The notes below the pieces were generated by a model, which was given only the letters and a program-made list of their open reading frames with translations, did no database searches and had not been told where the DNA came from. This document shows positions 31,365-31,820 of a DNA stretch of 64,000 bases, piece by piece. The position numbers and the translations under genes were made by a program. The stretch lies in sequence record PP400777; one strand, 5' to 3'. This DNA is from Escherichia phage JM10. How positions within the stretch are numbered: position 1 is the stretch's first letter; every line of letters begins with the position of its first letter.

Positions 31365-31820
31365 TTATTTCAGATCTTCGGCCCAATCTAGTTTTAAGGG
31401 TTCTTTGTATTCACGGTCGAGAATAACCGGAATAGCTACATCACCACTGAATGATAGTTGGCCAACGTTATATGATAACGTTATATGTGGAGTGTAGTCG
31501 TCGAAATCATGAGTAGCACCTAAAGCTCGTGCATACTGATGACGACATCTAAGATATTCGGAATCAAGAACTAAAACCAGTACAGCGCCGTCGTCAGTTT
31601 TCCATACCTCAAAGTGTCCTGATTCGGCAACAGAATAACTACCGCTAGATGTAGTATATGGTATGTTTACACGTGAATAACAAATTGTTGAATGAAGCTT
31701 TTCACGTGGTACTGGATTAGGAATTCTTAATTTACGCTGGAGGTCTTCCAGCGCATCAAGTGTTAATTCCGAAAATTTAGCTGCGACGTAGAGGCCTTGT
31801 GAAAAGTCCTCAAATTTCAT
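31365..31820 (-). CDS. 57B: 2H phosphoesterase, gp57B (Acb1-like anti-CBASS nuclease)
   Basis: two H-x-T/S motifs (HSTI, HITLS); 151 aa; position between ipI and 57A. Confidence 0.6.

Follow-up and report, generated by a model that had tools for sequence, protein, structure and literature searches.

The 64,000-nucleotide stretch of DNA analysed here (hereafter the window) belongs to an RB69-like Mosigvirus and possesses an ordinary, intact copy of acb1, which encodes an already known, characterized and curated phage enzyme. Because its product is 85% identical to T4 Acb1 and conserves all functional residues, this gene is almost certainly the Mosigvirus orthologue of T4 57B (acb1), and its product would be expected to act as T4 Acb1 does. 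A sequence-only reading had placed a candidate gp57B, a putative Acb1 anti-CBASS nuclease, at 31365..31820; these coordinates proved exact, and the open reading frame (ORF), listed there with no strand, was confirmed and lies on the minus strand. The proposed identity is supported by matches to the Pfam family PF23474 and the structure 7T26 as well as by the alignment to T4, from which the activity of this allele may be predicted. The genes concerned are the following:

17963..18229, minus strand: homologue of Acb2 (T4 Vs.4), 88 aa, found by tblastn and PF24729
29473..29549 and 29556..29629, minus strand: two tRNA genes, found by ARAGORN
30651..30926, minus strand: second internal head protein, phrog_7673
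30976..31287, minus strand: internal head protein (Ip7-type), downstream of acb1, phrog_2667, E 2e-38
31365..31820, minus strand: acb1 (57B orthologue), PF23474, 7T26, 85% identity to T4 NP_049750
31820..32050, minus strand: 57A, encoding the tail fibre assembly chaperone and directly preceding acb1, PF17594 GP57, E 5.9e-23
32055..32789, minus strand: gene 1, dNMP kinase, next upstream of 57A and a synteny marker, PF21448 DNMK, E 2.6e-96
32843..33433, minus strand: gp3 tail completion/terminator gene, with coordinates from the ORF tool and the name given by synteny with T4 and relatives; weak Pfam gp19-family match

The acb1 ORF runs from an ATG at 31820–31818 to a TAA at 31367–31365 and encodes 151 aa. 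The two motifs previously noticed in this protein, HSTI and HITLS, are present at residues 43–46 and 112–116, with the HxT cores at codons 43–45 and 112–114. Taken alone, such a pair is weakly distinctive, as four of the 59 window ORFs of 100–250 aa contain at least two H-x-S/T tripeptides. When two H-x-[ST]-hydrophobic motifs separated by 50–100 residues are required, the acb1 ORF is the only one retained among the 83 window ORFs of at least 100 aa; this 2H-type arrangement is therefore distinctive for it within the window. A chance ORF with chance motifs was ruled out by the homology and the substitution pattern described below.

Assignment to a family is straightforward. The Pfam model PF23474 (Acb1) matches the protein with an E-value of 1.3e-58 and 197.3 bits, against a gathering cut-off of 27, and does so end to end (protein residues 8–149, profile positions 1–144 of 144). 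Neither Acb1 nor Acb2 is represented by a model in NCBIfam. The closest solved structure is Acb1 of Erwinia phage FBB1 (PDB 7T26/7T27; E 1.1e-58; 63% identity over 141 residues). Identity of 63% across a whole chain implies the same fold, and on the strength of the 7T26 crystal structure we infer a compact 2H phosphoesterase fold for the window protein. A single-sequence AlphaFold2 model (pLDDT 40, pTM 0.29) was unusable.

The alignment to T4 Acb1 that had been proposed as a check showed 129 of 151 residues to be identical, with no gaps and both catalytic histidines kept. The active site of T4 Acb1 is an HxT/HxT tetrad of H44, T46, H113 and T115; Y12, W74, F107 and W147 stack on the nucleobases, E141 contacts the adenine N6, and residues 145–152 form a C-terminal lid (PMC9117128). 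All nine of these published functional residues (Y12, H44, T46, W74, F107, H113, T115, E141 and W147, in chain order) are identical in the window protein and numbered one lower. They correspond to Y11, H43, T45, W73, F106, H112, T114, E140 and W146, so that both the tetrad (H43, T45, H112, T114) and the five nucleobase-contact residues (Y11, W73, F106, W146, E140) are kept. The lid, residues 144–151, reads LDWAEDLK where T4 has LDWADDLK, a single D-to-E change. Altogether the two proteins differ by 22 substitutions, none of them at a described functional residue. We also aligned 11 homologous sequences covering eight further genera, with phages of Serratia, Acinetobacter, Aeromonas, Cronobacter, Vibrio and Klebsiella, at identities down to 29%. 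Across this range H43, T45, H112, T114, Y11 and E140 are invariant, together with G9, Q28, S49, V82, R93, G101, D105, Y109, P111, E137 and L142.

At the nucleotide level the gene is 74% identical to that of T4, with pS of 0.724, pN of 0.116 and dN/dS of about 0.05, a ratio that is approximate since dS is saturated and that nevertheless lies clearly far below 1. These comparisons indicate strong purifying selection on acb1. Of 50,697 phage records searched by tblastn, 1469 contain a homologue. Among these homologues 137 are at least 99% identical to the window protein, which is therefore already represented in public genomes; another 576 fall in the 80–90% identity band, including those of the Tequatrovirus phages AR1, wV7 and KIT03.

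T4 gene 57B encodes Acb1 (Hobbs et al. 2022, PMC9117128), and the sequence-only reading was correct in stating that gp57B has been described under that name. T4 Acb1 cuts 3′ of adenosine via a cyclic phosphate intermediate, and all nine further homologues assayed in the same study had the same two activities (PMC9117128). During T4 infection the activity appears at approximately 15 min. Deletion of acb1 from T4 causes a more than 300-fold plating defect on CBASS hosts at no cost on CBASS-free hosts, and a transposon screen confirmed that the gene is conditionally essential when the host carries CBASS. An intact acb1 also has a cost: Panoptes systems of types I and II respond when their decoy nucleotides are depleted and restrict phages that possess the gene, and phages that escape have inactivated it. 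A literature search combining Acb1 and RB69 returned no paper testing a Mosigvirus Acb1.

The chemistry, substrate range and in vivo role that we propose for the window protein are taken from the work on T4 and FBB1 Acb1. By analogy, it would be a small metal-independent 2H phosphoesterase produced during infection. It would bind cyclic di- and trinucleotides made by host CBASS cyclases, namely 3′3′-cGAMP, cUA, cAAA and relatives with at least one adenosine, and the C-terminal lid would close over the bound cyclic nucleotide. The H43/T45/H112/T114 tetrad would then cleave the 3′-5′ bond on the 3′ side of adenosine, with a cyclic phosphate as intermediate. With the signal linearised some minutes into infection, CBASS effectors would never be activated.

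One name at odds with this assignment is that of an RNA ligase. The protein belongs to the PHROGs family phrog_755 (E 2.4e-65), labelled "RNA ligase"; the RefSeq name for T4 57B and several orthologues is the same, and labels of acb1 orthologues in deposited genomes vary between "hypothetical protein", "RNA ligase" and "cyclic phosphodiesterase". Read literally, such labels would make the protein a LigT-like 2′-5′ RNA ligase, or a cyclic phosphodiesterase of RNA or tRNA repair, acting on RNA ends and not on immune messengers. The Pfam profile PF13563 (2_5_RNA_ligase2) does give a weak and partial match (residues 70–131, E 0.013), but at 15.9 bits it stays far under its cut-off of 27, against 197 bits for the Acb1 model. 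Moreover, the 85%-identical T4 orthologue cleaves cyclic oligonucleotides and is needed only on CBASS hosts, and the Acb1-specific stacking residues are conserved along with the adenine contact E140. We consider action on RNA ends exceedingly improbable and reject an RNA ligase identity, since the LigT-type profile is sub-threshold and the T4 orthologue is characterized. The phrog_755 name is a legacy label given at the level of the superfamily (2H fold), predating the characterization of the T4 protein.

A subtler alternative accepts the protein as an Acb1 and supposes that its substrate range or effect is unlike that of T4, for instance through shifted specificity or evasion of type III CRISPR signalling by cA3. 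The 22 amino-acid differences from T4 leave some room for it; an Acb2 sponge homologue is also present, so that tasks could be shared out in another way, and Acb1 activity is a known liability against Panoptes guards, which places selection on the gene. Against this stand the absence of any of the 22 differences from the published catalytic and base-contact residues, a lid altered at a single position (D to E), the uniform pair of activities in the nine additional homologues of Hobbs et al., and the strong purifying selection. A distinct substrate range or effect thus appears very unlikely. For the Mosigvirus allele in particular, with its 22 substitutions and an Acb2 in the genome, we allow a slim chance that the substrate range has shifted or that the kinetics are altered; if this were true, it could change the set of CBASS or type III CRISPR signals that are neutralised, or how strongly Panoptes-type guards, which sense the loss of cyclic nucleotides, are triggered.

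The surroundings of acb1 are T4-like. The segment 29000–34000 shares 96–97% identity with the phages pEB20, AV118 and mogra, and the minus-strand gene order is 2, 3, 1, 57A, acb1, internal head protein, as in T4; the part from gene 1 to the internal head protein is common to T4, AR1, mogra and 348Ecol098PP and agrees with the Straboviridae arrangement, in which acb1 directly follows 57A within the internal-protein anti-defence locus. The stop codon of 57A overlaps the start codon of acb1 in the sequence TAATG, and because of this overlap the two genes are probably co-transcribed and translationally coupled.

On the other side of acb1, the expectation that the gene lies between ipI and 57A held for its position but not for the name ipI, as the neighbour and T4 IPI belong to different families and are not orthologous. 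The product of 30976..31287 shares six identities with T4 IPI within the first 12 residues, which form the capsid-targeting sequence (MKTYQEFIAEA in the window protein), and nothing beyond; its counterpart in phage mogra is annotated as "internal head protein 7". The next product, encoded at 30651..30926, also has a T4-type capsid-targeting N-terminus (MKTFNEFISES) and is likewise not a T4 IPI orthologue. T4 IPI itself is an inhibitor of GmrSD. Since this is a hypervariable internal-protein locus, it is plausible that both internal head proteins downstream of acb1 are injected anti-defence proteins.

Beyond the second internal head protein lie small ORFs homologous to ORFs of the T4 tRNA region, followed by two tRNAs. 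ARAGORN found only these two in the whole 64-kb window, Arg (TCT) and Met (CAT), located 6 nt apart. The equivalent locus of T4 holds eight tRNAs together with rnaC and rnaD. Close relatives differ by insertions at this locus: mogra has approximately 100 nt inserted between its two tRNAs, and 348Ecol098PP an additional ORF of 171 aa.

A scan with a promoter consensus returned 23 matches, close to the 16.7 ± 4.3 of shuffled sequences, and no confident promoter could be assigned to acb1. The late-promoter box TATAAATA does not occur between gene 1 and acb1 except for one copy inside gene 1, at 32412. Terminator-like sites are more frequent in 30800..35200 than in shuffles (9 versus 2.7 ± 1.8). 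A short, G+C-containing palindrome, GGCTCTTTAGAAGAGCT, is located at 32086..32102, in the 3′ end of gene 1 and just upstream of the 57A start; its score was that of a terminator-like site on either strand.

The intergenic region between acb1 and the internal protein gene (31288..31364) contains a hairpin of 12 bp on the minus strand, at about 31316..31342. The 83-nt region enclosing it has a predicted RNA minimum free energy of −18.3 kcal/mol (z −3.5), and one of 200 shuffles was as stable. The hairpin overlaps a match to a T4-early-like promoter at 31350..31322, composed of TTTACA, a 17-nt spacer and TACTAT with a TG extension. T4 has a hairpin at the same place (13 bp, z −3.8), with the pairing register shifted by 2–3 nt; because of this shift, a reading of pair-for-pair covariation with T4 was dropped. 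No U-run follows the hairpin at about 31316..31342, which makes it unlike an intrinsic terminator. It could serve as a stabiliser of the transcript 3′ end or as a processing site.

A second gene bearing on the same signals is found elsewhere in the window. The Acb2 homologue at 17963..18229 shares 65.5% identity with T4 Vs.4 (tblastn, E 2.6e-32) and matches the Pfam Acb2/Tad1 hairpin domain PF24729 (E 4.4e-18). The ORF tool lists it within a TTG-started ORF of 144 aa; translation probably begins at the ATG at 18229. Two genes upstream of it, at 18443..18805 on the minus strand, a 120-aa protein with a glycyl-radical domain (PF01228, E 2.1e-18) is encoded. This is the counterpart of T4 vs.6, a GrcA-like autonomous glycyl radical cofactor.

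Correct annotation of acb1 matters, as many deposited genomes still carry "hypothetical protein" or "RNA ligase" in its place. Its identity as acb1 predicts resistance of the phage to CBASS signalling by adenosine-containing cyclic di- and trinucleotides, and also sensitivity to Panoptes guards that fire on depletion of those nucleotides. The occurrence of Acb1 and Acb2 within one 64-kb stretch is relevant to host-range prediction and to phage-therapy design.

Among the closest known systems is that of T4. Its Acb1 (gp57B, NP_049750.1, from NC_000866) is 85% identical to the window protein over the full length without gaps and is longer by one N-terminal Met. As in the window, acb1 of T4 directly follows 57A and precedes an internal head protein gene, and T4 also encodes the pair of Acb1 (degrader) and Acb2 (sponge). 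The differences are the 22 substitutions, which lie outside the active site, and two details of the locus: the overlap of 57A and acb1 is ATGA in T4 and TAATG in the window, and the downstream internal protein is IPI in T4, whereas that of the window is Ip7-type and belongs to another family. Acb1 of FBB1, solved in the apo form (7T26) and with 3′3′-cGAMP (7T27), aligns over 141 residues, interrupted by one gap of a single residue, and retains both the HxT/HxT tetrad and the lid tryptophan. Unlike T4 and the window protein, FBB1 Acb1 has F in place of W74/W73, and its first motif is HTT where that of the window is HST. More distantly, the LigT/2′-5′ RNA ligase superfamily (PF13563) resembles Acb1 in its pair of H-x-T/S motifs, spaced by some 70 residues, and is weakly similar to it at the profile level, while Acb1 is set apart by its own curated Pfam family, its cyclic-oligonucleotide pocket and its lid.
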